Shown piece after piece: positions 3,516-22,677 of a stretch of 64,000 nucleotides of DNA. How positions within the stretch are numbered: the first letter of the stretch is position 1; every line of letters begins with the position of its first letter. Source of the stretch: Alloprevotella sp. (lineage in GTDB: Bacteria; Bacillota; Clostridia; Christensenellales; Aristaeellaceae); the NCBI GenBank assembly GCA_963617205.1, contig CAVEOA010000002.1, positions 22,289 through 86,288 of the forward strand, in the 5' to 3' direction. The notes under the pieces are model-generated. The model was not told where the DNA came from. It saw only the letters and a list, made by a program, of their open reading frames with translations, and made no database searches. A program made the position numbers and the translations under genes.

Positions 3516-3756
3516 GCGTTTCCCTCCCCTCGAACCATCACATGCAAAATTCAGCAATCATTTCTATATTATTGCACATAATCTTGTAGAACTTTAGCAA
3601 TACTCTTTTCAACTATACCATGCTTTCCGGCGAAAAGCAAGCGGAATAGACACGACTGCCTCAGCGCGCCGCCGCAATCAATCAAACAGACCTGCGCTTT
3701 TGACTGCTGCATGCCTACTGATGAGGCGATGGAGCTGATGTTGTGCAGCCTGTCGG

Positions 3757-4269: not shown

Positions 4270-4790
4270 TTTCGATTCCTTCCTTCGTCAATGTACGGCG
4301 TCTGCCTGCCTTCTCCGGAAAGAAGAAGGGTCAGGAAGCTGTTCTTGATCTCCACTGAACCGCACAGATAGCTTTCGCCGATAATCAGCGTCGGAACAAG
4401 CTGACGTTCCTCGGGAATGCCCTTGCGTTCATAGTATGCCTGAATGATGGTGCCCTCGTCCGGATTCGATTTATTCAGCGCAACGAGCCTGATTTTGCTT
4501 TTGCTGCCATCCGCCAGCGTGATTTCCTCCGGCAGCCCGGCGATGATCATATCCGCGCGTTCCGAGCAATACCTGCAGGTCGGGCGATAGAAGTAGTAAA
4601 CCAGCGAATCGCCGGCATCGACGTCCGCATCAATGCCTGTATTGCTTTTGGGATGATAATCCTCCGTCTCCTCCTCGGCAGGGGCTGAACCCATGAAGGC
4701 ATTCAGTCCCTGCTCCGCAAATGCATTCGCCGTCAGGAGGAGCGCAAGCAGCATCACCAGCGCAATGCGCTTCCCTCGTCCCATCGTCAT
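4266..4790 (-). CDS. Secreted thioredoxin-fold protein with CxxC motif (thiol-disulfide oxidoreductase-like)
   Basis: Signal peptide RIALVMLLALLLTANAFA. CxxC sits in YYFYRPTCRYCSE and a cis-Pro-like VPTLIIG follows. ATG 4790 overlaps the upstream TGA (ATGA at 4787-4790). The ORF-track start at 4865 would overlap the upstream CDS. Confidence 0.7.
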   Translation of the reverse strand: MTMGRGKRIALVMLLALLLTANAFAEQGLNAFMGSAPAEEETEDYHPKSNTGIDADVDAGDSLVYYFYRPTCRYCSERADMIIAGLPEEITLADGSKSKIRLVALNKSNPDEGTIIQAYYERKGIPEERQLVPTLIIGESYLCGSVEIKNSFLTLLLSGEGRQTPYIDEGRNRN

Positions 4791-8076: not shown

Positions 8077-9467
8077 TTCGTCACTCCTGAAGCCGAGAAG
8101 ATGATTTCACCGTCCAGCAGCAGCTCAACGCACCAGTCAGCCCCTGCCGGAATGCCTTGCAGCTGATCGAACAGGTCGGCCAGATAAATGGTCATCATCG
8201 TATCCGCGTTCGTGCCCGGCAGGAACCTGACCTGATCCATCGGCCATTGACCGGCAATCCGCGCCGTACCGCAGCCTTCCACGTGAAGATAGATTGCAGC
8301 CTCCTTGCCGTCAAATGCCTCGCGATTGATTTTTCCAACTGCCTTGACAATTTCCAGATAGTATCCGTACTCTGCCAGATTTTCCTCGGAAATATCAACC
8401 GCAAAATCGTTGACTCTCTGCGCCGAGCCGGCGTTGAACAGCGTCACCGCGGGAGAGCTGCCCTTGCTGCTGCCGCGGTCAATTTCGCTGACTGCCCTGC
8501 TGTAGCTCGTCTTCCTGACGCGGAACATGCGCACATTGACCGCTTCCTCTGCGCCGATGTACGTTTCGTTCGTGTCTGCCCTGTCCACGGAGATGGCGTT
8601 GCACTCGCTCTGCGCCAGCTGCCTTGCATCGTACACGCGAATGTAATACGTGCTTCCCTGCCACAAGCCGCTGACGGAAAACGACACGTCCGCATCCGTT
8701 GTCTGAACGCTGTAGAGCGCGCAGCCATTTTCGTCAGGCGTCCATGCAACTGTTTCGCCCTTTGTAACTTCCACCGCATCTCCGCTTACATCCGGCGCTT
8801 CCGCGAAGGTGCTGACCGTGATGCGGTAATCATTGATGTGCTGCTGATTCTCCCACGCAATTTCGATGGATGACCCATCGCCGCTCTGTTTTTTCGCCGT
8901 AAAGCTCAGGACAACCGACTGCAGGGCAGCGGCAGCCTTGTCCAGTTCCTTCTGTTCCTTCTGAAGCTTCCACAGCACATCCAGCTGCTCCGACGCCATG
9001 CCGGACAGGATGGTGTACTCCCGTGCTTCCTTCAAGTCGTTTTCGGCGTTCGTCAGGTCGCCTGATGCAAGCGCCTCGCTGCCCTGCACGTACTTGATGT
9101 AGTAGACAATGTCGGGGAATTTGCTTGACGAGCAGCGCTGAAAATGCTCCGCCGCATCCGCGTACTCCTCATCCCAGAAGCACAGCCACCCCTGCGCATA
9201 ATGATAGTATTCCGCCGCATCCTTGTAGCTGCCGTACACATTTTCCGCGTAGTTCGCAACCACGTTTGAGAAGGATTTGCGCGCCTGCACCATGTTGCCT
9301 GCGGCTTCATAGGTCTTTCCGCGATTGTACTCGGCGTACATGGCCTCAAGCTTTGATGCCAGCGAATAATCATCGACGCCCGCTGCCGTTTCAGCCATGC
9401 CTGTCGAACATGCACACAGCACCAATACAATCAGCAAGAACCACGCAATCGCATTTTTCCGTTTCAT
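8073..9467 (-). CDS. Putative lipoprotein with TPR-like helical N-half and FN3/Ig-like beta-rich C-half
   Basis: Signal with a probable lipobox, LIVLVLCACSTG. The helical region has Y/A-rich TPR-like repeats (AAEYYHYAQGW, AAEHFQRC). An FN3-like stretch follows (SIEIAWEN...YRITVS...STYYIRVYD). Confidence 0.65.
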   Translation of the reverse strand: MKRKNAIAWFLLIVLVLCACSTGMAETAAGVDDYSLASKLEAMYAEYNRGKTYEAAGNMVQARKSFSNVVANYAENVYGSYKDAAEYYHYAQGWLCFWDEEYADAAEHFQRCSSSKFPDIVYYIKYVQGSEALASGDLTNAENDLKEAREYTILSGMASEQLDVLWKLQKEQKELDKAAAALQSVVLSFTAKKQSGDGSSIEIAWENQQHINDYRITVSTFAEAPDVSGDAVEVTKGETVAWTPDENGCALYSVQTTDADVSFSVSGLWQGSTYYIRVYDARQLAQSECNAISVDRADTNETYIGAEEAVNVRMFRVRKTSYSRAVSEIDRGSSKGSSPAVTLFNAGSAQRVNDFAVDISEENLAEYGYYLEIVKAVGKINREAFDGKEAAIYLHVEGCGTARIAGQWPMDQVRFLPGTNADTMMTIYLADLFDQLQGIPAGADWCVELLLDGEIIFSASGVTK

Positions 9468-9508
9468 TGCCCATAGCCTCCGTCATGAATTGATGGTGTG
9501 TGCCTGCC

Positions 9509-9841
9509 TTAATCCAGCTCGTTGCTCTCTTCCGGCTTGCTTTCCGTCGGCTTTTCCGTCAGCATCTTCTGCTGTGCAGCGAGCACAAACTGGCTGGTCA
9601 CCGAGAATGTCCTGCCTTCCGGTCCCGTGTAACCCTTGAATAGGACCTCGCTGATGTTCTCCGTGTCAAACGGGCGAACCGTTTCGTCATCCTTTTCGCC
9701 CAGCGGATAGAACACGCCGACGTAATCAAAGCAATGCTCCTGAATTTTCAGGCCGTAGCCAACCACAGCGAAGCAATACTTCTTGTTCTCCTCAAGGCGC
9801 ACAATGCTCCCGATGGGAAGCATGTTTTCAGCTGTCAGCAC
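9509..9841 (-). CDS. DUF4176-family protein (T7SSb-associated accessory protein), copy 2
   Basis: Family-typical N-terminus LPIGSIVRLEENKK...DYVGVFYPLGE...ISEVLFKGY. It has a long tail ending ESNELD. Confidence 0.75.
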   Translation of the reverse strand: MLTAENMLPIGSIVRLEENKKYCFAVVGYGLKIQEHCFDYVGVFYPLGEKDDETVRPFDTENISEVLFKGYTGPEGRTFSVTSQFVLAAQQKMLTEKPTESKPEESNELD

Positions 9842-9859
9842 GAATTTTGACCTCCCCTA

Positions 9860-10648
9860 TCAATAACCAAAGATGGTGGTTTTAACGCCATTTGCAACAT
9901 AGTTAAAGCCTTTTCCGACCCATCCGCCGACTGTCCCGCCAGCCTGAGTTACCCAGGTGGTTGCGCTGTCCGGGATGATGTCGATTCCAAAGCCGTTCAA
10001 AACCGCATCAACCGTACCGATTACAGATCCTGCAGCGCTTGAACCGATACCAGTGCCAAGCGTTTCTGAGAGCGTCGTCTTGCCGCTGCGGTAATCTCCG
10101 ACAGCTTCGTTACGAACGCTCGCTATCGCATCGTCGGCATGCGTGTAAGAATGCGCCATATTTCCCGCGTTGCTGAGCATTGGAATTCCTGTAACGTCAG
10201 CTGCAATCACGCCTCCGGCACCAAACGCCGCCTCAAGCACGTCATTCGTGGTACCATTTGCAATGGCGTCAATCAGTTCGGACGCATAGCCGCCTGTGAC
10301 CACATCCAGAAGCGCCGTGACCGCCCCTGCTACGCCGCCATCCTGAAACGCTTCAATCACCTTCACGGCGGAGTCGTAAATTTCCTTTACCTTCAGCAGC
10401 TTATCCAGATACTTCGACAGCTTTTCAAACTTCTCAAAAATCGCCTTGACCGTGGCGCTGATTTTGCCCAGAACGGTTCCGCTCGTACTGCTTGCAAGGT
10501 CGCCGCCTGCTTCCGGATGCAGCTTCAGATAGCTCTCCGAGTTCTGTGCGCTTGTGAGTGCGTCCTTCGTGGTGTTCTTTGCACTTGTCGTCTGGTCAAT
10601 CAACGTCTGCAATGCTTGCGCATTATAGTCGGTTGTTACCGCCGTCAT
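9860..10648 (-). CDS. Putative T7SS substrate/effector: helical N-domain plus Gly/Ala/Ser-rich glycine-zipper C-domain
   Basis: 262 aa with no signal peptide. The helical N-terminal part is about 110 aa. The C-terminal part has GTGIGSSAAGSVIG and GGTVGGWVGKG (GxxxGxxxG). It lies directly after three small helical genes, as in LXG-type effector modules. Confidence 0.55.
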   Translation of the reverse strand: MTAVTTDYNAQALQTLIDQTTSAKNTTKDALTSAQNSESYLKLHPEAGGDLASSTSGTVLGKISATVKAIFEKFEKLSKYLDKLLKVKEIYDSAVKVIEAFQDGGVAGAVTALLDVVTGGYASELIDAIANGTTNDVLEAAFGAGGVIAADVTGIPMLSNAGNMAHSYTHADDAIASVRNEAVGDYRSGKTTLSETLGTGIGSSAAGSVIGTVDAVLNGFGIDIIPDSATTWVTQAGGTVGGWVGKGFNYVANGVKTTIFGY

Positions 10649-10671
10649 GTTCCCGCTCCTCCTGTTCTCTC

Positions 10672-10941
10672 TTAATCAAGCGTGTTCAAACGCCTTTCCG
10701 AAATCTGCTTCTCATTGTCGATGTTTTTCAGCAGCGTCTGCAGCTTCTGCAATGCCTTTTCAACCGCGTCGCTCTTCTCCGTGCACGCCTTATAGAGGTT
10801 TTGCGTATTGGCGCTCGCAATGCCCTGCTTCAAAAAGGCAAGCGCCTGCGAAAGATTGCCAATCTGCGTCTGCATGCTCGTCACAATCGACTGGCTGTTG
10901 TTTACCGCCGTCTCAAAGGCCGACAAATCAACATATGCCAT
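10672..10941 (-). CDS. Small alpha-helical T7SS-associated protein (Lap/WXG100-superfamily-like), 89 aa
   Basis: Helix-turn-helix-sized, no Trp, ends RRLNTLD. An SD-bearing 23-nt gap precedes the downstream gene. Confidence 0.55.
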   Translation of the reverse strand: MAYVDLSAFETAVNNSQSIVTSMQTQIGNLSQALAFLKQGIASANTQNLYKACTEKSDAVEKALQKLQTLLKNIDNEKQISERRLNTLD

Positions 10942-10965
10942 GGTTTTTCTCCTCCTTTTTCTCTC

Positions 10966-11268
10966 TTAAGACCCTTTAAGCACCTTCATTGCGTCCGTTT
11001 CCTTTTTGCTGAGTTCTCCGGAAAGCGTTCCGACCGCCGTTGCATACGCCTTCACCGCATCCGCAAGGCTCTGAATCTGCTCGCTGAGCTGCATGTTGTT
11101 GCTGGCGATGAAGTCCGACTTGTACTTGCTGTCCCAGGTGCTCAGCATCGCGTCAAGCTCCGTCTTAAGCTTCGCGCCGTTCTTCTTCAAGGCGTCCGAA
11201 ACGTCGTTCAGCGTGGTCAGCGCCTTGCTTACCTGCTGGCTGTCATACGAGTAGTTGGTATTTGCCAT
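10966..11268 (-). CDS. WXG100-like protein (EsxA-like, W-x-S variant), 100 aa
   Basis: The central motif LSTWDSKYKSDF aligns with the W-x-G...F pattern of EsxA-type proteins, with G replaced by S. ATG 11268 with gagaggggg upstream is preferred over the ORF-track GTG at 11274. Confidence 0.6.
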   Translation of the reverse strand: MANTNYSYDSQQVSKALTTLNDVSDALKKNGAKLKTELDAMLSTWDSKYKSDFIASNNMQLSEQIQSLADAVKAYATAVGTLSGELSKKETDAMKVLKGS

Positions 11269-11288
11269 ATGCACACGCCCCCTCTCTT

Positions 11289-11531
11289 TTATCCAAGCGC
11301 CTTAATCTTCTTCGTGATGGTTCCGCTTGCCGACTTCGCGCTGTTCTCCGCCTCATTCGCGTCCTTGATGCTGTCATCCAGAATTTTCTGAAGCTCATTA
11401 ACCGCCATGACGCCAATGGTCGACGTGTTCACGCTGGACAGCGCCTTGGAAGCCTCCTGCATCTTCAGTTCCATGTCTTCCAGATAGCGCTTTGCCGATG
11501 CCATGTCCGCGCTGTTATACTTGTCGCTCAT
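11289..11531 (-). CDS. Small alpha-helical T7SS-associated protein (Lap-like), 80 aa
   Basis: All-helical composition with no Trp or Cys. An N-terminal YNSAD (YxxxD pattern) is present. It is tightly packed, 12-14 nt from its neighbours. Confidence 0.5.
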   Translation of the reverse strand: MSDKYNSADMASAKRYLEDMELKMQEASKALSSVNTSTIGVMAVNELQKILDDSIKDANEAENSAKSASGTITKKIKALG

Positions 11532-11543
11532 CCTGCTTCCTCC

Positions 11544-11861
11544 TTAGTCAAGCTCGTTCGATTCGTGCATCTTCGGGGCAAATTCGCCCGCTGCGGCTCT
11601 GCGCTCCGCATCAGCCATCGCCTTCGTCATCCCCTGCTGAAACTCGGGGTACTTCTCGTACTGGTAGCCGTTGAACACCACCTGTTCGATGGCTTCCTCG
11701 TCAAAGAGGACGATGGGCATATCACCCAATCCCAGCGGATACGGAACAGAAGCGTACTTCCGGATGTTTCCGGCTGCTCCCACACGCAGATACCCCGTAA
11801 CCATGCGCTTCTCGCGATGATCCTTGATTGTCACAACGCTCCCGATTGGCAGAAACTCCAT
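11544..11861 (-). CDS. DUF4176-family protein, copy 1
   Basis: MEFLPIGSVVTIKDHREKRMV...VPYPLGL...IEQVVFNGYQ. The tail ends HESNELD. Confidence 0.75.
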   Translation of the reverse strand: MEFLPIGSVVTIKDHREKRMVTGYLRVGAAGNIRKYASVPYPLGLGDMPIVLFDEEAIEQVVFNGYQYEKYPEFQQGMTKAMADAERRAAAGEFAPKMHESNELD

Positions 11862-11880
11862 ACAGACCTCCTTATATTTT

Positions 11881-12123
11881 TCAGCACAGCATGAGTACTG
11901 AGCCGTTTTTCACATTCAGGCTGCGCACCGACTCGTTCAGGTCGAGCACCGCATGTCTCTGATTGTCGCAAAGCACGCAGGTCACCAAATCAATGTACGG
12001 CTGCGCATTCATCTGCTTAACGATGTCGGCAAGCATATCCCGGAAGGGCACATCCGCCGGCAGCGTAAACGTTTCGCATTGACCCGTGCCCGGCACCACA
12101 ATATGGGCAAGAATATGTTCCAT
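11881..12123 (-). CDS. esaB: EsaB/YukD-like ubiquitin-fold T7SS protein
   Basis: 80 aa, immediately downstream of essC (6-nt gap). A beta-grasp-like sequence is present (ILAHIVVPGTGQCETFTLPADVPFRDMLADI...NGSVLML). Confidence 0.7.
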   Translation of the reverse strand: MEHILAHIVVPGTGQCETFTLPADVPFRDMLADIVKQMNAQPYIDLVTCVLCDNQRHAVLDLNESVRSLNVKNGSVLMLC

Positions 12124-12129
12124 TCAGCT

Positions 12130-15100
12130 TCACTCCTTCGGCAGATAAACCTTGATGGGGAAACGGTTTTCCGGAATGACGAAGCCTTCGCCGGGCTTCA
12201 TGTATTCATTCGTCCGGTCATACGTCAGCGAGCAGTTCCACGGGTCAAAGCTGGACAGCGTATTGCCCGTTGTGATGATGTGGCAGTTCTGCGCAAACGC
12301 CCTGACCGAATCCGGCAGTGAATTTGCATTGATCTGCGTGGAAATCAGAACGCGGATGCTGTACTTGCTTCCGAGGCGCACTGCGGTCAGAAGCTGCTTC
12401 GACAGCTGCTGGTCCACCTTTTCCCCGTCAAACCACCGGTCCACGTCATCCAGCACAATGCACAGCGGCTTCATGGTGCCTGCAATCGCGCGCCAGTTGT
12501 TTTCGTCCTCCCAGCCTGAAACGGCGCGCTGCGCACGCTTTTGCTCGCCGAAGCGGTCGTCCATATCGGACGTAAAGCCGCGCTGCCGGTCAACCGGCGT
12601 ATTGCTTGACAGGAAGGCTACATGACCGTTGACGCCCTTCCACCTTGCCTGGTCGGCTTCGCTGGCAATCACGAAAATATCTCCGTCATCCCCTGCGCAA
12701 AGCTTCGCCAGCGACATCAGCAGCGACGTCTTGCCGGTTTCGCGTTTGCCTGCAACAAGCACCGTCGGCTTTTCGTAGAAGTCCAGGAAAACAGGCTTCA
12801 GCGATTCATGCCGGAATGCGACCGGCACCTCTGCCTTTTTCTCCTTCACGCCATACGCGGCAAGCACCTGCGCACCAAATTCTGCCGGAACACGCGGCAT
12901 TTTGAGCACCGGCGCACTGCACGGCGGAAGGGCTTCACCGTATTCATGCAGCTTTTCCGCACGCTTCCGATCCTCTGCCAAGCCAAACGCAAGCCCCGTC
13001 TGAAATTCGAGACAGCCCTGCTTGCTGTTCATCACGCCGCGACCGGGCAGATCTGCCGGAATCGCCTGTATGCTGCTCGTGCGGACATTCAGCGCATCCG
13101 CATATTCCGACGCACTGCCCATGCCGAGCGGAATGACCTGCATCGCCTCCAGCAGCCGCCGGTTGATTTCGCCCATAGCATTCGCCGTCACGATGAAATA
13201 GATGCCGCGTCCCGAGGCCGTTTTAATCAGGTTTTCCACCTTTTCCTGCTCGTTGTCGTTCAGCAGCTCATACCATTGCGCAAAGCGATCCACCGCCACA
13301 ATCAGCGCAGGCATAACAGGCTCGCCGTCCTCCTCGCATGCGCGGTTGTAGCTTGCAAAGCTGTCCGTCTTTTTCTCCGCGAATGTCGCGTCGCGTGCGG
13401 TCATCAGCTCCTCCAGCCGATAATATGCGGCACGCTCCTCACGGCTTTCCCACTTGGTCAGCACATCGCAGACGTTGGGAATTGTCTCAATGGACTTCAG
13501 CGCCGTGCCCGAGAAGCTGAGCACCATCATTTGCACCTGCGCCGGCGAATAGCGTCGGCTGACTGCATAGGCGAGCGTCTGCAGGAACATCGTCTTGCCG
13601 CTCTGGCTGTGCCCGATAATCGCCATGTTCCGCAGCGCAGACACATTCAGCGATGCCGTCAGATACCGCTGATTCGCCACATCATCCAGCATACCGATGA
13701 CGGCGCTGATGCCGTCCTCCGTGTTTTCCTCCGCCGATGGCAGCGCAGTCAGGTCAATCACATTCGGCAACTCCGGCAGCCACAGCTTTCCAGCTCCCTG
13801 ATAGCCATACGTTTCTGCCGTCCTGTTGATTTCATCCAACACGGCGCTCATCTGGCTCTTTGCTTTTTTCGTTGGTGCATTTGCCGCAGCAACCATCTTT
13901 TTCCTGCGCCCGAGCGAATCCATCAATGCAGGCTTTGCGGCGGGATCCCCCTGCTCCGGCTCATAGGCGGCGCCGCAATACGCCGTCTGAATCTGTTCAA
14001 ACAGCTCATCATTGCCCACCTGTACGAAGCCGCGTCCGTTTCCCTTGATGAACGCCGCATCCGGTCGGTGCAGCATATCGTTCGAGTCCTCGCGTGTCCG
14101 CACCTGCAGGCAGATATGGAAGCGGCTGTTGCTCCAGATTTCAGGACCCACCTTGTTTGACGGGCGCTGCGTTGCCAGCAGAAGATGCAAGCCGACCGAG
14201 CGTCCCACGCGTGCCGTGCTGATCAGCTCGCTCATGAAATCCGGCAGCTCGTCCATCAGCTCCGAGAACTCGTCAATCACAATCAGGATATGGGACAGCT
14301 TCCTGCTGTCCGCAAGCGGATTCACATAGCGAATGTACGCATCGATATTATCGACATCGTACCTTTTGAATAATCTCTCGCGCCGTTTCACCTCGCCGCG
14401 AAGCGAATACAGCGCCCGGTTGATGCTCCGCTTTCCCTGCAGGTTGTCTACAAAGCCGATGCAGTGCGGCATGTTTCTGAAGTTGTTGAAGGTGCCGCCG
14501 CCCTTGTAGTCAATCAGAATAAACTGCATCTGCTCCGGCGAATAGTTCAGCGCGAGCGAAAGCAGCAGCGTCTGCAGCAGCACGCTCTTGCCCGAGCCGG
14601 TTGTACCCGCCATGATGCCGTGCGGTCCATGCTGCTTGTCCGACAGGTCAAGCGGGAAAATGCGCTCGCCAGCCATCTTTCCCAGATAGGCGATGATGTC
14701 CCTGCTCGTGCTGTTCTGCTCCCACCGAAGGCGGATTCCCAGCTGCTCTGTCTCGCGAACGCCATACATCTCCAGGAATGTCACGCGATCCGGAATTTTC
14801 CGATTGCCGATTAAACCCGTTTCGCGGCAGCCGTTGAGCGTATCGATGGTTTGCCAGAATTGACTCTCCTCGCAGGATTCCGGCGTCACGCTCTGCGTTG
14901 TTTTCTCTGCGTAATTGTAGAGCTTTTTCTCCCGCGCATTGTATACAACCTTGCATTCCTTGGGAAGCTCCTCTTCCTTTTCCGCGCAAACGCAAATCGA
15001 AAAGCCGGCGTTCGAGGCAATGATGTTGGAAAACAGCACATGCCGCCACAGATAGGTGCTGTCCTCGAAAATGACGATGTAGTGCGGCAGCATGGCGCTC

Positions 15101-16647
15101 TTTTCGTTGTCCTTTTCCAGCCGGAGCATCAGCACATCGTTGAGCTGCGACAGGATTTCCATCGCATCCGCGTAATTGTCCGAAATCAGCTGACCCTCGC
15201 TGCCGTCATACAGCTGCATGTGCGGCAGCGCACGCAGGAAACGCCACTTCTCGCCGTTGCCCGGCTTTGCGATGAGGGCAATCCGCACATCCTCGGGCGC
15301 ATGCATGACGGACAGCTGTAAAATCAGCGTTTCAATCAGCGAAGATGCTTCCTCTGAGACGATGCCGAACAGCTTGTCATTGAGCAAATCAACCGTAATC
15401 GGCGCATCGTGCAGCATACTGAATTTTTCCTGCAGGCGGTACGGCGCATTCTTTTCGTCCTCAGGCACCTCGCCCATCTTCAATTTCGGCACGGAAATGC
15501 TGTACGGCAGCCTGACCTGTCCTCTCCCTATGCGTATTTTGAGAAACGTCTCGCTGTTCGGCGTTCTTTCCCATACGGCGGAGCTCAACTGCGCCGCATC
15601 GCTGCAGCATTGCTGCCATGCCGGATAATATTTTTCCAGCGTGTCCAGAATCTCCTCAACGCCCTTGTTGATTTCCTTTTCTGTTCGCCCAAGGCGCTTG
15701 ATATAATCCGCCATCGCTTCCTTGAACTGCTTTTTTCTCATGTGCCTGCTGTAGCAATAGTTCATCAGCGACCAGCCGACCGCCAGCACAGAGGAGGACA
15801 CCATCATCACCGTGCCATAGCCGCGATAGCTCGACCCGCTCAGCATGCTGCCCAGCAGCATCGGCAAGCTCATCGTCAGCGCCGGACCCATGCTCAGAAG
15901 AAGTGGCTGCGTCCTGTTTTCCTCAAGCACCGGCGTCGCTTCAATCTCGTACTTTTTCTCTTCTATTTTCGGCATGAAGCGCGGCGGTCGGGCGATATCC
16001 CGATACAGGGGAGCCGCCTTCGCCCGGAACGTCACGATATGCGGTATGCTCGCTGCCTGCAACGCAACGTGTCCGCCGCCGATGCCGCTGACGCCAATCA
16101 CGTTGCCGCCAAGATACACAATCTGCAATCCGCTTGCGAAGGCAATCAAATCGCCCGTGCGGATTTCCTTTTCTTCATTGCGGATGAACCATCCATTGAT
16201 AAACGAACCGTTCTTGGATGTATCGGCATAGCTTGCATGGTCTCCTGACACCTTCAGGACGCCATGATGATTAGAGAGGCGCTTGTCCGGCGAGCAAACG
16301 CCGCAGTCCTCATGACGTCCGATTTGCAGCGTCTCTCCGGTCAGGACATACTTGCCGAACCGGACGTCCTCCTGCAAAATTTCGGAGCAGTAAATGCCGA
16401 TTATCGCGTCCTCATGCTTCAGAATCAGGCTCATCTCATGATGCAGACACCGTTCCCGTGTATCCTCGCCGTCATTCCATGTCATTTCCTCAGGCTTGAC
16501 CGCGTACCACTGATGATCCATGGCAACAAACGTCACCTGATATTTCTCATAGGACGGCGCTGCCGCAGTGATGGCGTCCTTCTCGACGTCCGGCAGACAG
16601 AATATTTTTCCTCGTCCCCTGCTGTACATAACGATTCGTAGCATCAT
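12130..16647 (-). CDS. essC: EssC/YukB-type FtsK-SpoIIIE T7SS ATPase with N-terminal FHA domains
   Basis: 1505 aa. FHA-like region LQIGRHEDCGV...NHHGVLKV...DTSKNGSFINGW. Two TM segments are present. There are three P-loops: GTTGSGKSVLLQT, GHSQSGKTMFLQT and GKRETGKTSLLMS. Confidence 0.9.
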   Translation of the reverse strand: MMLRIVMYSRGRGKIFCLPDVEKDAITAAAPSYEKYQVTFVAMDHQWYAVKPEEMTWNDGEDTRERCLHHEMSLILKHEDAIIGIYCSEILQEDVRFGKYVLTGETLQIGRHEDCGVCSPDKRLSNHHGVLKVSGDHASYADTSKNGSFINGWFIRNEEKEIRTGDLIAFASGLQIVYLGGNVIGVSGIGGGHVALQAASIPHIVTFRAKAAPLYRDIARPPRFMPKIEEKKYEIEATPVLEENRTQPLLLSMGPALTMSLPMLLGSMLSGSSYRGYGTVMMVSSSVLAVGWSLMNYCYSRHMRKKQFKEAMADYIKRLGRTEKEINKGVEEILDTLEKYYPAWQQCCSDAAQLSSAVWERTPNSETFLKIRIGRGQVRLPYSISVPKLKMGEVPEDEKNAPYRLQEKFSMLHDAPITVDLLNDKLFGIVSEEASSLIETLILQLSVMHAPEDVRIALIAKPGNGEKWRFLRALPHMQLYDGSEGQLISDNYADAMEILSQLNDVLMLRLEKDNEKSAMLPHYIVIFEDSTYLWRHVLFSNIIASNAGFSICVCAEKEEELPKECKVVYNAREKKLYNYAEKTTQSVTPESCEESQFWQTIDTLNGCRETGLIGNRKIPDRVTFLEMYGVRETEQLGIRLRWEQNSTSRDIIAYLGKMAGERIFPLDLSDKQHGPHGIMAGTTGSGKSVLLQTLLLSLALNYSPEQMQFILIDYKGGGTFNNFRNMPHCIGFVDNLQGKRSINRALYSLRGEVKRRERLFKRYDVDNIDAYIRYVNPLADSRKLSHILIVIDEFSELMDELPDFMSELISTARVGRSVGLHLLLATQRPSNKVGPEIWSNSRFHICLQVRTREDSNDMLHRPDAAFIKGNGRGFVQVGNDELFEQIQTAYCGAAYEPEQGDPAAKPALMDSLGRRKKMVAAANAPTKKAKSQMSAVLDEINRTAETYGYQGAGKLWLPELPNVIDLTALPSAEENTEDGISAVIGMLDDVANQRYLTASLNVSALRNMAIIGHSQSGKTMFLQTLAYAVSRRYSPAQVQMMVLSFSGTALKSIETIPNVCDVLTKWESREERAAYYRLEELMTARDATFAEKKTDSFASYNRACEEDGEPVMPALIVAVDRFAQWYELLNDNEQEKVENLIKTASGRGIYFIVTANAMGEINRRLLEAMQVIPLGMGSASEYADALNVRTSSIQAIPADLPGRGVMNSKQGCLEFQTGLAFGLAEDRKRAEKLHEYGEALPPCSAPVLKMPRVPAEFGAQVLAAYGVKEKKAEVPVAFRHESLKPVFLDFYEKPTVLVAGKRETGKTSLLMSLAKLCAGDDGDIFVIASEADQARWKGVNGHVAFLSSNTPVDRQRGFTSDMDDRFGEQKRAQRAVSGWEDENNWRAIAGTMKPLCIVLDDVDRWFDGEKVDQQLSKQLLTAVRLGSKYSIRVLISTQINANSLPDSVRAFAQNCHIITTGNTLSSFDPWNCSLTYDRTNEYMKPGEGFVIPENRFPIKVYLPKE

Positions 16648-16736
16648 CTTTCATTCCTCTGTCAGTATCGTTCAGGTAAATGTGCAAATTCATGGTTGCT
16701 ATAACAAATGATGGGTGTAATGAATTGTGTTTTTTA

Positions 16737-16795
16737 TGCCGGATGCGATTGCAGAAATTGAAAATTTGCCGGATGTAAGAGATTTCTGCAATCGC
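16737..16795. promoter_or_regulatory. Perfect 14-bp inverted repeat interleaved with a 9-bp direct repeat in the essC upstream region
   Basis: GCGATTGCAGAAAT (16745-16758) and ATTTCTGCAATCGC (16782-16795) are separated by 23 nt. TGCCGGATG occurs at 16737 and 16767, 30 bp apart. The element lies 98-150 nt upstream of the essC start codon. Confidence 0.5.
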
Positions 16796-16911
16796 CAGAC
16801 CGGCACAAAAAAGCTTTTTGCCGCCGCAGATGGCGCAAGAGGCACATTCAGCGGCAATGCCGAATTATACGGTGTTGCCCTGTATAGAATCCCGATGATT
16901 CTGAAATCCCA

Positions 16912-19818
16912 TCACGATTCATGAACATACGCAAGCATCGGTTCAAGCTCTTCCCAAAGGACAAAACCGCTGTCCCGCATGGCTTTATATTCCTCAAGAA
17001 CGGCATCGATGTACTCCTGTGCCTTGTCCTTCTTGTTCATGGCATCGTATGCCATCGCAATCTGGAAATGAATCGTCACGCGCCCGACCTCATCCGGCTG
17101 TTCGCACTCATTCATCCGTTTCAGGCACTCCTCAAGTATCTGCAGCGACTGCTTGTATTTTCCTGCTTCGTAATACGCATAGCCGCGTTGATCCAGTGCG
17201 TGAAGCGTCAGCCAGGACGTACGGTCGAGGTTCCTTATTTTGCACAGCAGCTGGTAATTGACCTGCAGCGCCTTCTGCGGCTGTTTTGCGCGCCGGTAGG
17301 CCTGTGCCAGATGAAGCAGCTCGTCCTTGTCGTTTTTCAATCTGTCATCCGTATTCTTCTCGTATCCTTCGATATAACGCTGCGCATACTTTTCTACCCT
17401 TTGCCACTGTCTGCCGACCGCGCACGCTTCCATCAGGTAAGCGCAGGAAATCCAGCTGTCATTTAGTTCCGAATCGTCTCCCATTTCTTTTATTATTTTT
17501 TCGATAAGCCGTTCAAATTTGTCAAGTTGCTCCTCCTGCGGAATGGCCGTGCCGAACATAACGCTGTAAAAAGCCTGTAGTTGAAGCTGGAAACAAAACG
17601 ACTTTTGCTCAGGGTCCATCTTCTCCGCCTGTGCCAGAAGCTCGCTGCACTTCACTACATCGCCGCTGTTCATGAGCACATTCCGCGCTTCTTCGATCAG
17701 CATAAACCCGCGTGGAATCGAGTTCGGGCATTCTTCCAGAATACGGCTGATCAGCGCATTTGTTTTTTTATTCCCAATGCTGTTGCCCATCTGAATGAAC
17801 ACAAACACACCCATTGCGGCAAGCGGATTTGCAAAGTCAATTTTCTCTGCTTCCTTCAGCAGCGCATCCGCATCGTTTTCTTCTCCGGAACTTTCATATT
17901 TTGCCATTCTGATCGCAATTTCAAAGCAATGCGCAATAAAACGTGTTTCCTTATTTGAACTTTTCCCGCAAAACTGCACCATTCTTTTCTGAATCTGGCG
18001 ATAGCTGTGCATCACAGCATACACCATCGCGCCAAGCGCAATTTCCTCCGGCACTTCCATCCCGTTCGCCACCAGAAAGGAAACAATGCTTGCACCGGCG
18101 TACGCCTCCTGCTTATAGCAGAACAGCTCGTCCCCATGCTGTGCGAACAGCTCCCGAATGCGTTTTTCCAGCTTCGGATAATCCTGAAGCCTGCCGAATT
18201 CCGTGCGCATCGCCTCGGCGATAACCGGCTGCATCGAATAGCCATGCCGATTCAGCTCCAGCCAGCCATTCAGATAGCCGCTGTAGAGCATCGATGGCAC
18301 CTTTTGGGCATCGGGCTCCGCGTCCAGCAGGAGATTTTCGATGCTTCTTGGCGGCCAGCTCACAGCATCCAGCGCTGAAAACAGCACCAGCAGCCTGCGC
18401 ATCTGGGGCGTCACGACGGTCGTCGCAAAGACCCTCCTGAGCTTCTCGATAAAGCTCTCGCTTTCGCCGCGATGAATCAGTTGCAGATTCTGATAGCCGT
18501 TCGCGTCAATTTCTTCGTTCAGCGCAGCGACTGTCAGCGAACGCATTTTCAATGCCTTGCCCAGCAGAATCACTGCCAGCGGATGCCCCTGCATGCGGTG
18601 GTGCAGCCGCTCAAATTCCTCTCTGCTGTCCGACAACGGGAAGCCGCTGCTGACCTCCAGCAGCTTTCTCGTTTCATCCACGCCCAAAGACGCCATAGGA
18701 AATTCTGAAAAGCCCTCCAGCTCTCGCTGACGGGACGTCACCAGCACATCGCAGCCGAAGCACGCCACCTTTTCCCATTGCTCCGGATTTCGGTCAATCC
18801 TTGCATTGTCAATCACCAGCAGCGTCCTGCCGCTGTACGGCTTGTCCAGTAGCTCTCCGACGCTGCGAAGGATCTTCTCCGGCTCCTCCTCTCGAAGCTC
18901 CGAAAACGCCTTTTGAAATGCCGCAGCCAAATCTCCCTGATCCTGCGCAAACGCCAGTCGGCTGTATCGACCCAGCTCTCCGCAGCGCACCAGCACCTGC
19001 CGGACAAGCTCCGTTTTTCCCATGCCGCCGGCGCCCGAAACGAGCACCTTTCCTCTTTTTTCCAGACGCGCATACAGCAAATCGACCACGTTTTCCGGAC
19101 AGGGCACGTAAGCCTCCTTCGCAAGCGCCTGCTTACAAGCCTCGCACTCATGCGACGTCAGCACCACCGGCACAAAGCGTCCGAACGTGACATGGCGGTA
19201 TTTCATGTACAGCTGGCTGGCTGAGAACTCATCGCGTTTCCGCAAAAGCGCAATCCGCTTGCTGTCCATATGGCTGCCAAGGAAAGCATAAACCGTCAGC
19301 CATGCCATCTGCACGCTGCAGAAAAAGCCCTGACTGGGGTAGTCCATCTCAAACGCTTCATTCGCCTCATCGCGCAGGGTTACCAGATGCGCCTGAATTT
19401 CGGACGTCATCGCGCTGTCGCCTGCTATGCACTGATCTTCAAACGCGCACAGCGACTGCATAAACAGGAACCAGTCCGGCTCCTGCCGATTCAGCAGCTC
19501 CAGCCATGCGACCGTCAGATGCATAAACTTCGTGCTGTCAAGCTCCTTGGAGAAGGTCTCGTAAAGCGGCGACATCACGCCTGCGGTGCCGCTGCGGTTC
19601 ATGATATTGCTCAGGCTTCGCGAGCGCTTCTCCTTCGTGCTCTCCAGCATGGCCAGCGCGTCATCATCCAGAATCGTCATCAGCAGCTCACGCCAGAAGT
19701 GAATCAGCGTCGTCTTCGCAAGCCGGATTGCGGCGGTTGATTTGTCCCCGTCTATGCCGTTGCTAAGCCAACGATAAATCTCACGCGGTGTCAGCAGTCG
19801 ATTGCCTTCTGTTTTCAT
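16912..19818 (-). CDS. STAND NTPase: unassigned about 250-aa N-domain, NB-ARC (AP-ATPase) module, C-terminal TPR array
   Basis: Walker A VSGAGGMGKTEL, Walker B LLVIDNA, RNBS-B-like DVLVTSR and GLPL-like QGHPLAVILLG. The C-terminus has multiple TPR-like repeats (YYEAGKYKQSLQILEECL, IAMAYDAMNKKDKAQEYID). Confidence 0.8.
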   Translation of the reverse strand: MKTEGNRLLTPREIYRWLSNGIDGDKSTAAIRLAKTTLIHFWRELLMTILDDDALAMLESTKEKRSRSLSNIMNRSGTAGVMSPLYETFSKELDSTKFMHLTVAWLELLNRQEPDWFLFMQSLCAFEDQCIAGDSAMTSEIQAHLVTLRDEANEAFEMDYPSQGFFCSVQMAWLTVYAFLGSHMDSKRIALLRKRDEFSASQLYMKYRHVTFGRFVPVVLTSHECEACKQALAKEAYVPCPENVVDLLYARLEKRGKVLVSGAGGMGKTELVRQVLVRCGELGRYSRLAFAQDQGDLAAAFQKAFSELREEEPEKILRSVGELLDKPYSGRTLLVIDNARIDRNPEQWEKVACFGCDVLVTSRQRELEGFSEFPMASLGVDETRKLLEVSSGFPLSDSREEFERLHHRMQGHPLAVILLGKALKMRSLTVAALNEEIDANGYQNLQLIHRGESESFIEKLRRVFATTVVTPQMRRLLVLFSALDAVSWPPRSIENLLLDAEPDAQKVPSMLYSGYLNGWLELNRHGYSMQPVIAEAMRTEFGRLQDYPKLEKRIRELFAQHGDELFCYKQEAYAGASIVSFLVANGMEVPEEIALGAMVYAVMHSYRQIQKRMVQFCGKSSNKETRFIAHCFEIAIRMAKYESSGEENDADALLKEAEKIDFANPLAAMGVFVFIQMGNSIGNKKTNALISRILEECPNSIPRGFMLIEEARNVLMNSGDVVKCSELLAQAEKMDPEQKSFCFQLQLQAFYSVMFGTAIPQEEQLDKFERLIEKIIKEMGDDSELNDSWISCAYLMEACAVGRQWQRVEKYAQRYIEGYEKNTDDRLKNDKDELLHLAQAYRRAKQPQKALQVNYQLLCKIRNLDRTSWLTLHALDQRGYAYYEAGKYKQSLQILEECLKRMNECEQPDEVGRVTIHFQIAMAYDAMNKKDKAQEYIDAVLEEYKAMRDSGFVLWEELEPMLAYVHES

Positions 19819-19840: not shown

Positions 19841-19870
19841 ATTGTAAAAAAACATGCCCTTGTTTGTCAA
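19841..19870 (-). promoter_or_regulatory. Candidate sigma-A promoter of the STAND gene
   Basis: Minus-strand TTGACA (19870-19865), an 18-nt spacer, then TACAAT (19846-19841). It lies about 22 nt upstream of the ATG at 19818. Confidence 0.4.
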
Positions 19871-20074
19871 ACGTGAATCAACATACGTTTGCCACAATTT
19901 TCGCCGTGCTTGCGCATTTTTCCTTTTTTGCGCCATTTATTTCGCCAACCCGCCTTTGGGCACATAATTCCCGATTCATCGCGCCCCCTCATTGGTGCGT
20001 TGTTGTCCTTATTTTCTTTTCGCCCGTGACAATCCGCCAACGCAGAGAATTGCGCAGCGTTGTTTTTCGCGCTA

Positions 20075-20103
20075 TTTACATCGTCCGCTGTCCATGGTAT
20101 ACT
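20075..20103 (+). promoter_or_regulatory. Candidate sigma-A promoter of the MBOAT operon
   Basis: TTTACA (20075-20080), a 17-nt spacer, then TGgTATACT with an extended -10 (hexamer 20098-20103). Confidence 0.5.
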
Positions 20104-20157
20104 ATATTTGTTTGGCTATGCCTTCTGCTGAATCAAAAGATAGAAAGTGGTGGCGAT

Positions 20158-21549
20158 ATGGTTTTCAGCTCAACGATTTTTTTGCAGTTCTTTTTGCCGA
20201 TTGTCTTCATCCTGAACTATTTCGTTCAGAAGAAGTACTCCAACATCCTGCTTCTCATGGCAAGCCTTGTGTTCTACGCGTGGGGCGAGCCGGTGTTGGT
20301 GCTGCTGATGGTCGCGTCGGTGGTGCTGAACTGGTTCGTTGGCGGGGTCATTGCCAAAACCTCCGGCGGTGCAAGGAAAGCCGCATTAGCCATTGGCGTT
20401 GTGTGTGATCTGGCAATCCTCGGCTATTACAAGTATGCCGGATTCCTCGTCTCGATTCTCAACGGCCTTGTCGGCAAAACGCTCATGGCCATACCGGAAA
20501 TCTCGCTTCCCATCGGCATTTCCTTTTTCACCTTTCAGGCCATTTCCTACATTGTGGATGTGTATCGCGGCGACACGGATGCTTCGCCGAAGCTCGTGAA
20601 CGTGGCGCTGTACATTGCCTTCTTCCCGCAGCTGATTGCAGGACCCATTGTCAAGTATAAGGACATCAACAGGCAGATTGAAGATCGCAGCATCACATGG
20701 GATGGCGTAACGAAGGGATTCCGCCGGTTCATCATCGGCTTGGCGAAGAAGGTTCTCATCTCCAATGTCATGGGCGCATGCGTCGATGCAATCTTCAGCA
20801 GCGACCTTGCCAACGTCGGCGGTGCAGAAGCATGGGTGGCGGCGCTCGCCTACACGTTCCAGATCTACTATGACTTTTCGGGCTATTCTGACATGGCCAT
20901 CGGTCTGGGCAAAATGTTCGGTTTCGATATTCTGGAGAACTTTCAGTACCCCTATATCTCCTCTTCAATTACGGAATTCTGGCGCAGATGGCATATTTCT
21001 CTGGGCTCCTGGTTCAGGGAATATGTGTATATCCCGCTTGGCGGCAACCGAAAGGGCGTCGCCCGCACCTACGTCAACCTGTTCATCGTCTTTTTCCTGA
21101 CGGGTTTGTGGCATGGCGCGGATCTGGCCTTTGTGCTGTGGGGGCTCTACCACGGTTTCTTCTCCATCATTGAGCGTGTGGGGCTGAAGAAGTGGCTGGA
21201 CAAGCATCACTGGATTGGCATGCTGTATTGCTTCCTTGTAGTGCTCTTTGGCTGGGTTTTGTTCAGGGCCGCAAACACGGAATTGGCAATGCGCTATCTT
21301 ACACGGATGCTCATGCCGTGGCGCTATCAGAGCACAGGGCTTCTCCTGCGGTGCGTTGACCTGAAGACCATCACTGTTTTCTGCTGCGCAGTGCTTGGCA
21401 TGGGTTTTGCAAATTTCATCCCCGAAAAGATGATGAAAAAGTGGCGATACTCCGTGCCCGAGGCGATTCTGTGCGTCCTTCTGCTCGTGCTCTGCCTTGC
21501 CTCCGTTGCGGGCAACAGCTATAACCCGTTTATCTATTTCCAGTTTTAA
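20158..21549 (+). CDS. MBOAT-family membrane O-acyltransferase (AlgI/DltB-like)
   Basis: Polytopic protein: MVFSSTIFLQFFLPIVF..., FYAWGEP, YSDMAIGLGKMFGF, EFWRRWHISL and the conserved His region LWHGA. The ORF-track start at 19864 adds an implausible N-extension across the promoter. Confidence 0.85.
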   Translation: MVFSSTIFLQFFLPIVFILNYFVQKKYSNILLLMASLVFYAWGEPVLVLLMVASVVLNWFVGGVIAKTSGGARKAALAIGVVCDLAILGYYKYAGFLVSILNGLVGKTLMAIPEISLPIGISFFTFQAISYIVDVYRGDTDASPKLVNVALYIAFFPQLIAGPIVKYKDINRQIEDRSITWDGVTKGFRRFIIGLAKKVLISNVMGACVDAIFSSDLANVGGAEAWVAALAYTFQIYYDFSGYSDMAIGLGKMFGFDILENFQYPYISSSITEFWRRWHISLGSWFREYVYIPLGGNRKGVARTYVNLFIVFFLTGLWHGADLAFVLWGLYHGFFSIIERVGLKKWLDKHHWIGMLYCFLVVLFGWVLFRAANTELAMRYLTRMLMPWRYQSTGLLLRCVDLKTITVFCCAVLGMGFANFIPEKMMKKWRYSVPEAILCVLLLVLCLASVAGNSYNPFIYFQF

Positions 21550-21561
21550 GAGGTGGAAAGG

Positions 21562-22677
21562 ATGAAAAAGAGTTTCGGTTCATGGATTCTCATGATCGTG
21601 TTTGTCGTGAACATCTGCCTTTCGTGGGGAATCTGGTTTTTCGTGCAGCCTTTATCTGACAACACCAACTATGAGAATCGTCAAAAGGCAGAGGTGCCGG
21701 AATTGACGCTGTCCACCTACAGCAGCTTTCCAACACGGTTCACAAGCTTCTTGGACGATAGGATTCCCTTCCGCAATGAGCTGATCAGCCTCAATTCCTC
21801 CATTGACTACTACGTTTTCCACAAATCCACCAGCGATTACGTATTGCCGGGCAAGAACGGCTGGCTCTTCTATGTCCGCAAGGATGACGGCGACCCGCTC
21901 GCCTGCTATCAGGGCACCAACCTTTACACAGACGCGGAATTGCAGCTGATTGCAGAAAACTGCCTTCATTTCCGCGATGTGCTGGAAGAACGCGGCATCG
22001 AGTTCGTGCTGTACTTCGCGCCCAATAAGGAACGAATCTACTGCGAAAACATGCCTAACGAATACGGTCTTCCTGCCGACGAATACGGTGTATTGCAGAT
22101 TGTCAACTATCTCCGGAAAAATACCGATCTGCGCGTTGTGTACCCCTATGAAGCGCTGATGGAAGCCAAGGCGCATACCGGGTATACTATCTACTACAAG
22201 ACAGATTCCCACTGGAATCAGATCGGCGGCTATGTAGGCAGCGCCGCACTGCTTCAGGAGCTGGGAATCGAGATGCCTTCCCTTGCTTCCGATGCGCTGG
22301 CAATCACCGAAGGCGAAGCCACCTCCGGCGACCTTGCTCAAATGCTGTATCTGTCCAAGCAGATGAATGGCGTTGATCATCATTATGTCCTGAGCGGCTA
22401 TCATGACCATGGCATCATGGATGTCAGCGCAAGCTTCAGCAATCTCATTGCCTACAATGCGCCTGATGGGGCAGATCCCCGCACGCTCTATGTCATTCGG
22501 GATTCCTTCGCGACCGCCATGGCGCCTTATTTGGGCTCGCAGTTTGAGCAGACCTATCTCAGGCACTTTAACGCTTACTCCTTCGATGATATCCTAACCT
22601 ATGAGCCAGATATTGTTGTGCTTGAATTGGTTGAACGAAGCTCCATTCTTCTGGAATACTTCTCCGCAGGCGAATAA
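21562..22677 (+). CDS. AlgX/AlgJ-like (DHHW-type) SGNH-fold acyltransferase partner
   Basis: N-terminal TM anchor, YKTDSHWNQIGGY motif and a late IRDSF motif. It is adjacent to the MBOAT gene. ATG 21562 follows gaggtggaaagg. Confidence 0.7.
   Translation: MKKSFGSWILMIVFVVNICLSWGIWFFVQPLSDNTNYENRQKAEVPELTLSTYSSFPTRFTSFLDDRIPFRNELISLNSSIDYYVFHKSTSDYVLPGKNGWLFYVRKDDGDPLACYQGTNLYTDAELQLIAENCLHFRDVLEERGIEFVLYFAPNKERIYCENMPNEYGLPADEYGVLQIVNYLRKNTDLRVVYPYEALMEAKAHTGYTIYYKTDSHWNQIGGYVGSAALLQELGIEMPSLASDALAITEGEATSGDLAQMLYLSKQMNGVDHHYVLSGYHDHGIMDVSASFSNLIAYNAPDGADPRTLYVIRDSFATAMAPYLGSQFEQTYLRHFNAYSFDDILTYEPDIVVLELVERSSILLEYFSAGE

Follow-up and report, generated by a model that had tools for sequence, protein, structure and literature searches.

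Among the bacterial STAND proteins (signal-transducing ATPases that have numerous domains), GutR, AfsR and MalT are grouped as non-immune regulators in PMC13581612, which cites earlier work for this grouping and for the observation that GutR, a Firmicute regulator, binds ATP upon sensing its inducer. For AfsR and the large Streptomyces antibiotic regulatory proteins (SARPs), binding to phased direct repeats beside the -35 element has been described (PMC10936776 and PMC11301090). The E. coli STAND transcription factor MalT oligomerises on direct-repeat boxes after binding of inducer and ATP (PMC4381067). Here, these systems are compared with a STAND NTPase gene that stands at the head of a type VIIb secretion system (T7SSb) locus in a stretch of 64,000 nucleotides of contig CAVEOA010000002.1 (assembly GCA_963617205.1); this whole stretch is called the window.

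Beyond a few model species, it is poorly defined which signals and regulators activate type VIIb secretion (PMC13492133). The known regulators are SigB, ArlRS, SpoVG and SarA, further DegU and Spo0A, and IreK together with the GntR regulator OG1RF_11099, which is encoded upstream of the locus (PMC13492133). The present analysis suggests a family of STAND regulator-like proteins whose N-terminal output domain is novel and for which a candidate operator can be defined. We give about an even chance to the reading that the protein of the window is an autoregulated, ligand-sensing STAND regulator, which uses this novel output domain and gates the T7SS operon of this locus. An earlier note on the same DNA had proposed either a regulator of the secretion genes with a DNA-binding N-terminus or an antiviral sensor.

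Domain architecture of the STAND protein

The STAND gene occupies 16912-19818 on the minus strand and is an ATG-started open reading frame (ORF), which encodes 968 amino acids and was assigned by ORF analysis, Pfam, AlphaFold (AF2) modelling and Foldseek. All four AP-ATPase motifs read by the earlier note are present in the translation, namely GAGGMGKT (262-269), LLVIDNA (333-339), VLVTSR (358-363) and GHPLAV (411-416). Furthermore, Pfam NB-ARC (PF00931) was recognised at residues 253-431, and its 30.3 bits (E = 3.2e-7) exceed the curated cut-off of 23.5 bits. G265, G267, K268 and D337, which lie in Walker A (G262-T269) and Walker B (LLVID337), are invariant across the 53 family members; the GxP motif is GHPLA at 411-415 and the sensor residue is R363.

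The full-length AlphaFold model was built from a 53-sequence family alignment and reached a predicted local distance difference test (pLDDT) of 88.9 and a predicted template modelling score (pTM) of 0.77. It displays an all-helical N-domain (11-208), followed by a short beta linker with C225-x-x-C228, a nucleotide-binding oligomerisation domain (NOD) and an unbroken alpha-solenoid (548-964). Within the NOD, an alpha/beta nucleotide-binding domain (NBD; 244-375), the ARC1 helical domain (380-440) and a winged helix (446-540) are seen. On the minus strand of the window, N-terminal sub-domain A (residues 1-92) corresponds to 19543-19818, as drawn from alignments A1-A3 and the helix positions in the models, and sub-domain B (93-210) to 19189-19542, as drawn from alignment, models and charge. 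The linker (211-243; alignment and model) lies at 19090-19188, the NOD (244-545; motifs, Pfam, model, Foldseek and HHalign) at 18184-19089 and the C-terminal TPR-like alpha-solenoid (546-968; Pfam, alignment, model and Foldseek) at 16915-18183. The long TPR array that had been noticed earlier is thus seen as a solenoid in the model; Pfam detects only its last repeats (TPR_12 above cut-off, residues 872-941). This solenoid is the most divergent region of the family and is presumed to be the sensor.

A Foldseek search of the PDB with the full-length model returned CED-4, Apaf-1 and the plant NLR NRC2 on top (E ~1e-8; TM-scores up to 0.65, normalised to the target), followed by TPR proteins. The core is therefore a genuine AP-ATPase. 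In HHalign, the NOD aligned with the NOD of XRE-NB-ARC-TPR proteins, which carry a helix-turn-helix (HTH), at 99.4% probability (E = 2.6e-21). The nearest named proteins outside the family, as found by profile search, are SARP/NB-ARC/TPR proteins, and the precomputed domain matches of distant family members are mostly weak ones to AAA_16 or nSTAND3. The CxxC of the linker is kept in the close clade and in the Hpt clade and is absent from distant members.

The MHD-like motif of the winged helix (residues 529-531; 18229-18237, minus strand) reads MQP in the close clade (window and P0002-P0011), whereas most of the family has MHP. Changes at the histidine of this motif alter ADP locking in NLRs and can cause auto-activity. 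An RRNPP-type peptide receptor (AimR, PlcR, Rap; HTH and TPR, no ATPase) was considered as well and rejected, since the NOD is present and the downstream gaps hold no conserved small ORF of the RRNPP-propeptide kind; the AimR-like match of the protein is weak, with 19 bits against a cut-off of 26.7 bits.

The first 250 residues had been called unassigned, and indeed nothing in Pfam, NCBIfam, PADLOC or the PDB sequences matches them. The N-domain is composed of two parts, sub-domain A with five short helices (about 5-92) and sub-domain B, a long-helix bundle (93-210). Sub-domain A is basic in 50 of the 53 members (median isoelectric point 9.4), and the remainder of the protein is acidic. Its residues Y15, R16, F41, W42, R65, R67, S70, N74 and R75 are conserved family-wide, the last five of them sharing one short helix. 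Sub-domain A is regarded here as a candidate DNA-reading module. Sub-domain B is acidic and holds the conserved hydrophobic helix AWLTVYAFLG (W173, L174, A178, G181).

The weak resemblance to an HTH of LuxR/sigma-r4 type that the earlier note had seen at residues 8-45 found no support. In both models, this segment consists of a helix (11-20), a low-confidence loop of 17 residues and a second helix (38-46), which is not a helix-turn-helix. A LuxR/sigma-r4 or XRE HTH in the N-domain was rejected on the basis of Pfam, PDB profile, HHalign, Foldseek and model topology. The N-domain profile found nothing meaningful among the PDB sequences, and an N-domain-only model (pLDDT 76) yielded no Foldseek match (best E 1.3 in the PDB and 0.64 in BFVD). 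The remote-homology and structure check that had been recommended for this region brought up no known family or fold. Of the proposed AfsR/GutR-like layout, the succession of NB-ARC and TPR stands, and the recognisable N-terminal DNA-binding domain has to be given up: neither an HTH nor a winged helix nor a LuxR domain, by which GutR/AfsR/MalT-type regulators are recognised, was found there.

A word-indexed search revealed 23 relatives of the STAND protein, and a further word-indexed profile search returned the same 22 members plus generic NB-ARC/TPR proteins only. In contrast to these word-indexed searches, the exhaustive search of 1.84 billion representative proteins with the N-domain profile gave 198 matches. 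Judged from these sequences, the family comprises ~200 representative clusters and appears to be previously unnamed; no name for these proteins was found in any source checked. Nearly all complete N-domain matches are 950-1000 amino acids long with the domain at the extreme N-terminus, and the domain is never found alone or in other architectures. This suggests that it is a fixed, unshuffled output module. A metagenome scan recovered mostly one gut species, which belongs to the Hpt clade. A plasmid search gave a single match, restricted to the NOD, to a Ruminococcus albus protein without this N-domain. This NB-ARC protein (L037; R. albus 7 plasmid pRUMAL01, 181489-184203) shares 23% identity over the NOD only, its gene is neighboured by BrxL, ThiF/MPN and PIN/antitoxin genes, and it is plausibly an uncharacterised defence STAND protein.

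Promoter, phased boxes and probable operon

The STAND gene is preceded by a sigma-70-type promoter, P_STAND, at 19841-19870 on the minus strand (TTGACA-18-TACAAT, 11/12), which was found by promoter scan and is conserved in relatives. Upstream of it, at 19885-19926 on the same strand, cross-clade conservation revealed an operator-like element of two 21-bp units (A-tract plus GCGCAA and A-tract plus TGGCAA). The units are centred near -79 and -58, as estimated from the -10 position, and 19927-19947 holds a weaker third one in phase with them. The pattern ATGCGCAA-N15-TGGCA is invariant in six close-clade loci, including one of 39% identity, and is situated ~20 bp upstream of the -35 element. 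The 64-kb window has a single copy, against 0.09 expected, and each close-clade locus has one as well, in every case upstream of the STAND gene.

Phased boxes are situated just upstream of the STAND promoter in five lineages. The motif was defined on the close clade as TGGCA or GCGCAA at a distance of 20-22 bp, and was then scored in the intergenic DNA that flanks the STAND genes of seven further clades. The motif was found in four of these seven independent clades (loci L025, L033, L034 and L036, in the latter twice), which corresponds to a Poisson-binomial P of ~2e-8 as derived from dinucleotide shuffles for clades outside the motif definition. All five cross-clade pairs are exactly 21 bp apart, with none at the other spacings from 6 to 45. 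In 222 kb of non-redundant sequence, 18 such pairs are present, and 11 of the 18 lie beside a STAND gene. Alignment of the boxes gives a unit of 21 bp in which TGGCA comes after an A-tract. In the window as well as in L001, L014 and L036, a distance of 95 nt separates the first box from the start codon. Furthermore, a leave-one-lineage-out test was performed, in which a weight matrix from the remaining lineages was run over the whole locus (3.5-64 kb) on both strands. Here, the STAND-upstream pair was the top-scoring phased pair in 8/8 loci (z = 4.6-6.4).

Some loci show variants of this arrangement. In L036, a second pair precedes the next gene, and in L033 and L025 the pair is inverted yet abuts the -35 element; the boxes of L033 face a divergent LRR_5 gene. 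L032 carries, at 1783-1814 and upstream of P0097, a direct repeat of 11 identical nt, TTTGAACAAAA, which has the 21-bp spacing and precedes a -35/-10 pair; repeats at control spacings never exceeded 8 nt. The conserved helix of sub-domain A reads RNRYIS in L032 instead of RSRSLS, and the box sequence of L032 differs as well, an apparent covariation of helix and box that rests on a handful of cases. A sigma-54 promoter reading of TGGCA was rejected by eye, because no GC is present at -12 and the sequence after TGGCA is unconserved.

The STAND gene is the only gene common to the box-bearing loci. Read most simply, the boxes are recognised by the STAND protein, which would mean autoregulation. 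This binding is inferred, as are the co-transcription, the direction of regulation and the nature of the signal discussed below. The regulator proposed by the earlier note gains from an operator-like element that follows the gene across lineages, and loses its dedication to the T7SS, from which the gene is unlinked in L002 and L011-L014.

The first T7SSb gene downstream of the STAND gene is essC (12130-16647, minus strand), for which Pfam and NCBIfam identify an N-terminal FHA domain and three FtsK-type ATPase domains. EssC scores 791.9 bits against the NCBIfam equivalog TIGR03928 (cut-off 778.4), and the described co-directional position of the STAND gene 264 bp upstream of essC is thereby confirmed. 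The gap between both genes (16648-16911, minus strand) contains neither a sigma-70-like promoter nor a terminator-like site on its coding strand, so that the reported lack of a good essC promoter stands, whereas the STAND gene has its 11/12 promoter. Likewise, the coding strand from P_STAND down to 3832 showed neither a terminator-like site nor any promoter-like site that exceeds 9/12. Since the corresponding gaps of relatives measure only 43-74 bp, a common transcript of the STAND gene and essC, started at P_STAND, is probable. As neither promoter nor terminator-like sites are present, co-transcription accounts for the missing essC promoter more simply than the activator dependence considered by the earlier note. 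The latter, with 16648-16911 as its target, also finds no support in relatives, where the gap shrinks to 74 and 43 bp, nor in an operator pair, of which the essC gap has none (score 2.6 versus 33.6 at P_STAND). An operator or promoter function of the gap was hence rejected, for it shares no motif with the STAND-upstream element, holds no phased pair and is mostly a strain-specific insertion.

This insertion (~16687-16881) is what the window carries in addition to the gap ends common with L001 (74 bp). The extra ~190 bp fold unusually well (z = -3.95, 0/200 shuffles as good) into a long composite hairpin, UUUUUUGUGCCGG..CGAUUGCAGAAAU, a 23-nt loop and AUUUCUGCAAUCG..CCGGCAUAAAAAA, without a U-tract after the stem. 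A repeat element or known RNA was not supported, as the window contains no second copy of the insertion and Rfam gave no family match. On the opposite strand of P_STAND, a mechanically called MBOAT ORF (19864-21549, plus strand) has its TTG start at 19864 and overlaps the promoter. A promoter-like site at 20075-20103 (plus strand) suggests that its real start lies further downstream. Together with an AlgX/DHHW-like gene (21553-22677), it forms a divergent O-acyltransferase pair, which is conserved in L001.

Mechanistically, the favoured regulator reading would proceed as follows. The divergent C-terminal TPR solenoid would sense a cytoplasmic ligand, and the ligand would free the NOD from an ADP-locked state and allow ATP-dependent head-to-tail oligomerisation. 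The oligomer would then array its N-domains on two, sometimes three, 21-bp direct-repeat boxes, two helical turns apart, upstream of the -35 element. Transcription from P_STAND would change for the STAND gene, essC, the other T7SSb genes and a trio of genes for exported proteins as one long operon, by which the STAND protein would autoregulate and gate T7SS expression. Because P_STAND is already near-consensus, the control exerted could be repression or fine-tuning just as well as activation. In a further, unlikely reading, the protein would be an NLR-like receptor for patterns or damage whose output is transcription. Its TPR part would sense a phage, competitor or envelope-stress molecule, and the oligomer would read the boxes through a DNA-binding domain of a new class and switch on the T7SSb. 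If true, it would be a bacterial counterpart of the CIITA/NLRC5-type transcriptional NLRs and explain T7SSb induction by attack.

Several points weigh against the proposed regulator. A near-consensus promoter such as P_STAND should not need an activator. Neither Pfam nor PDB profile, HHalign or Foldseek detected a DNA-binding fold or family in the N-domain, so that the evidence for DNA binding by this domain is indirect. No family recurred when ten diverse N-domains were compared with Pfam at E <= 10, and sub-domain A aligned with the XRE-HTH N-termini of other NB-ARC/TPR proteins at an HHalign probability of 0.1%, with the NOD as positive control at 99.4%. The canonical boxes are missing from L007 and the Hpt clade, the latter having only a degenerate variant upstream, and the downstream gaps of L011 and L014 as well as the gaps of L007 and the Hpt clade yielded no operator pair. 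LytTR regulators bind direct repeats with ~21-bp periodicity, which makes a LytTR/GHKL pair encoded behind the operon an alternative candidate for the box binder. The structured insertion might interrupt or modulate read-through into essC. Finally, most gene contexts were drawn from short metagenomic contigs, and the independent lineages are few.

Gene neighbourhoods and competing explanations

Across lineages, the STAND gene is found upstream of, and co-directional with, varying secretion, cell-envelope or signalling genes. In the window, essC is followed by the rest of the T7SSb block (6445-12123, minus strand), in which all gaps are <= 41 bp. It comprises yukD/esaB, DUF4176 (twice), an 80-amino-acid gene, two weak WXG-like genes, a 262-amino-acid gene and the genes for a TPR lipoprotein-like protein (464 amino acids) and a membrane Ser/Thr kinase (543 amino acids). 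EssA, EsaA and EssB/YukC have no Pfam or NCBIfam match in 6445-12123 (minus strand), and the block is therefore atypical. The 464-residue TPR protein has a lipoprotein-like signal. The kinase is true-kinase-like with one transmembrane helix (359-377) and might replace the EssB pseudokinase.

Behind this block, at 3832-6406 (minus strand), the trio of exported proteins (539, 199/171 and 145 amino acids, all with signal peptides) is encoded, which has homologues in L011-13. There, at 62% identity of the STAND protein, the trio homologues follow the STAND gene directly and the entire essC-to-kinase block is absent; one of these proteins has a thioredoxin-like CxxC. A LytTR response regulator (2808-3557, minus strand) and an AgrC-like GHKL histidine kinase (1555-2817, minus strand) are located 274 bp after the operon.

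The whole T7SSb block follows the STAND gene in the window, in L001 (87%) and in L003 (39%), with gaps to essC of 264, 74 and 43 bp, respectively. L001 (CAVIHU010000014.1) is a metagenome-assembled genome labelled 'Bacteroidaceae bacterium', which has the same T7SSb locus with a 95% identical EssC, and its label is probably a binning or naming artefact; the T7SSb locus and the dockerin and cohesin neighbours of relatives fit this label poorly and would rather suit a Clostridia-like bacterium. In L002 and L014 (64-65%), the STAND gene is followed by a 1686-amino-acid Big_2/dockerin protein and a cohesin protein. In L034/35 (28%), it is followed by a PG_binding_1 gene, which overlaps the STAND stop by 4 bp, and then by small secreted proteins and an SH3_3 protein. 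The gut species that was sampled many times (26-30%) has Hpt, a solute-binding protein and a hybrid histidine kinase at a fixed chromosomal position. In L033 (~20%), a divergent 1573-amino-acid LRR surface-protein gene (LRR_5) is present on the other side of the STAND gene. The same locus encodes a 393-amino-acid LHH-domain toxin and a SUKH_5 immunity protein ~4 kb downstream of the STAND gene (L033:12724-15604). Polymorphic-toxin pairs like LHH/SUKH are often exported by the T7SSb. A WXG/LXG identity of the gene after STAND in L036 was considered and is unsupported.

A consistent co-occurrence with essC, which the earlier note had asked to be analysed, was not observed. The linkage is lineage-specific: it is present in the window, L001 and L003 and absent from L002, L011-14 and all more distant clades. 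As the gene is unlinked to essC in several related genomes, the STAND protein is not a T7SS-dedicated factor. Since the T7SS is linked both in the window/L001 lineage and in the 39%-identical L003, we infer a loss of the block from the 62-65% lineages and not its insertion in the lineage of the window. The intergenic region after the STAND gene, including ribosome-binding site and first codons (GTG AAG AAG), is conserved between L011:12899-13169, L014:3997-4216 and L002:8114-8333. The ORFs behind it are unrelated, a 538-amino-acid PT-linker protein in L011 versus the Big_2/dockerin protein in L014 and L002, as if the cargo had been swapped while the 5' region was kept.

These neighbourhoods have to be considered when the favoured regulator is weighed against other functions. 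A signalling STAND protein with a protein-protein output would recruit or sequester a transcription factor, a component of a kinase or phosphorelay pathway or a part of the secretion machinery, and the boxes would be bound by another protein. We consider this possible, though rather doubtful. It would explain why no DNA-binding fold was detected in the N-domain, and the acidic helical bundle of sub-domain B is typical of an interaction module. Possible partners of this kind are encoded nearby, as one clade is fixed beside the Hpt and hybrid-kinase phosphorelay, and the window locus encodes the Ser/Thr kinase, the FHA domain of EssC and, at its end, a LytTR regulator of the ~21-bp repeat class. 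Nevertheless, the boxes accompany the STAND gene in loci without any other shared gene and no LytTR gene is consistently near. The box sequence further appears to covary with the conserved helix of sub-domain A, and the absence of solo or otherwise fused N-domains is unlike the usual adaptor domains. A dedicated T7SS accessory ATPase or chaperone, analogous to EccA, would instead bind substrates or machinery via the TPR solenoid. In its favour, the T7SS cluster begins with the STAND gene, which probably shares a transcript with essC; the same order persists down to 39% identity, and an ATPase and a TPR domain are combined in one protein. Such a function is improbable, however, for a family whose 62-65% relatives reside in loci without T7SS genes and most of whose members are not beside a T7SS. 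Moreover, the neighbours there carry Sec signal peptides, unlike T7SS substrates, and a STAND switch with winged helix, MHD-like motif and C-terminal TPR is not a classical AAA+ unfoldase.

The last alternative, already raised by the earlier note, is an Avs-like antiviral or conflict sensor, whose TPR part would detect a phage or competitor protein and whose N-domain would be a toxic, for example membrane-disrupting, effector. The tripartite layout of N-terminal effector, NOD and repeat sensor is that of Avs and NLR proteins, the N-domain is novel and has a conserved hydrophobic helix, and phage induction of the T7SSb has been described for E. faecalis (PMC7790226 and PMC13492133). Yet the searches all point the other way and make this reading very unlikely. 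The best PADLOC match of the protein was mad8 (E = 1.4e-5, P-loop region only), with no Avs model among the matches, and the ten flanking genes of the window have no PADLOC match and belong to sugar metabolism or transport (TIM, PFK, aldolase, SIS and ABC permeases). No defence genes or islands were found in the STAND neighbourhoods of ~eight independent contexts, unlike for the R. albus plasmid protein. No family relatives were present in 50,697 phage records and in 2.9 million viral contigs, and the plasmid search had given only the NOD match described above. In addition, the locus is syntenically stable within a species across many metagenomes, and the N-domain is never exchanged for other effectors. 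The defence reading was rejected on these grounds, and the autoregulated STAND regulator remains the favoured interpretation.

Comparison with known systems

None of the known T7SSb regulators is a STAND NTPase, and no paper linking a STAND or NB-ARC protein to the T7SS was found in literature searches. An ATP switch that senses a ligand and heads the operon, together with a short and precisely delimited candidate operator, would offer an experimental route to the T7SSb-inducing signal in uncultured gut Clostridia-like bacteria. If the N-domain reads the 21-bp-phased boxes, it would represent a new DNA-binding module, and the family would be a new branch of non-immune bacterial NLR-like regulators of cell-surface and secretion genes.

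EccA, the cytosolic ATPase of the mycobacterial ESX systems (T7SSa), resembles the STAND protein as an ATPase and TPR protein that is encoded at a T7SS locus. EccA belongs to the CbbX-like AAA+ proteins and has its TPR domain at the N-terminus, whereas the STAND protein has an AP-ATPase core and a C-terminal solenoid, and its gene is not confined to T7SS loci. The antiviral STAND proteins, here Avs1-4, have the tripartite layout with a repeat sensor in common with it. In contrast to these, defence neighbours, a PADLOC Avs match, an association with mobile elements and a recognised effector domain are missing for the STAND protein.

Among the regulators, the STAND protein resembles GutR, AfsR and MalT in layout and presumed logic, but fails membership in these types because no recognised DNA-binding domain is present. 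MalT and the LAL proteins differ by the C-terminal position of the LuxR-type HTH of MalT, by a SUPR domain as sensor and by a NOD of a different STAND clade. AfsR and the large SARPs of Streptomyces share the order of N-terminal output, NB-ARC NOD and TPRs. The AfsR output consists of an OmpR-type winged helix and BTAD; neither Pfam model matches the N-domain of the STAND protein, for which Foldseek gave no PDB match either. SARP repeats have an 11-bp periodicity, whereas the boxes of the STAND gene are 21 bp apart. GutR, the glucitol regulator of Bacillus subtilis, has a short recognisable HTH at its N-terminus. Compared with it by description, the STAND protein has a ~245-residue N-domain without detectable HTH. 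In both, the output region is N-terminal and is followed by an NTPase of NB-ARC type and by TPRs at the C-terminus; GutR controls its adjacent genes.

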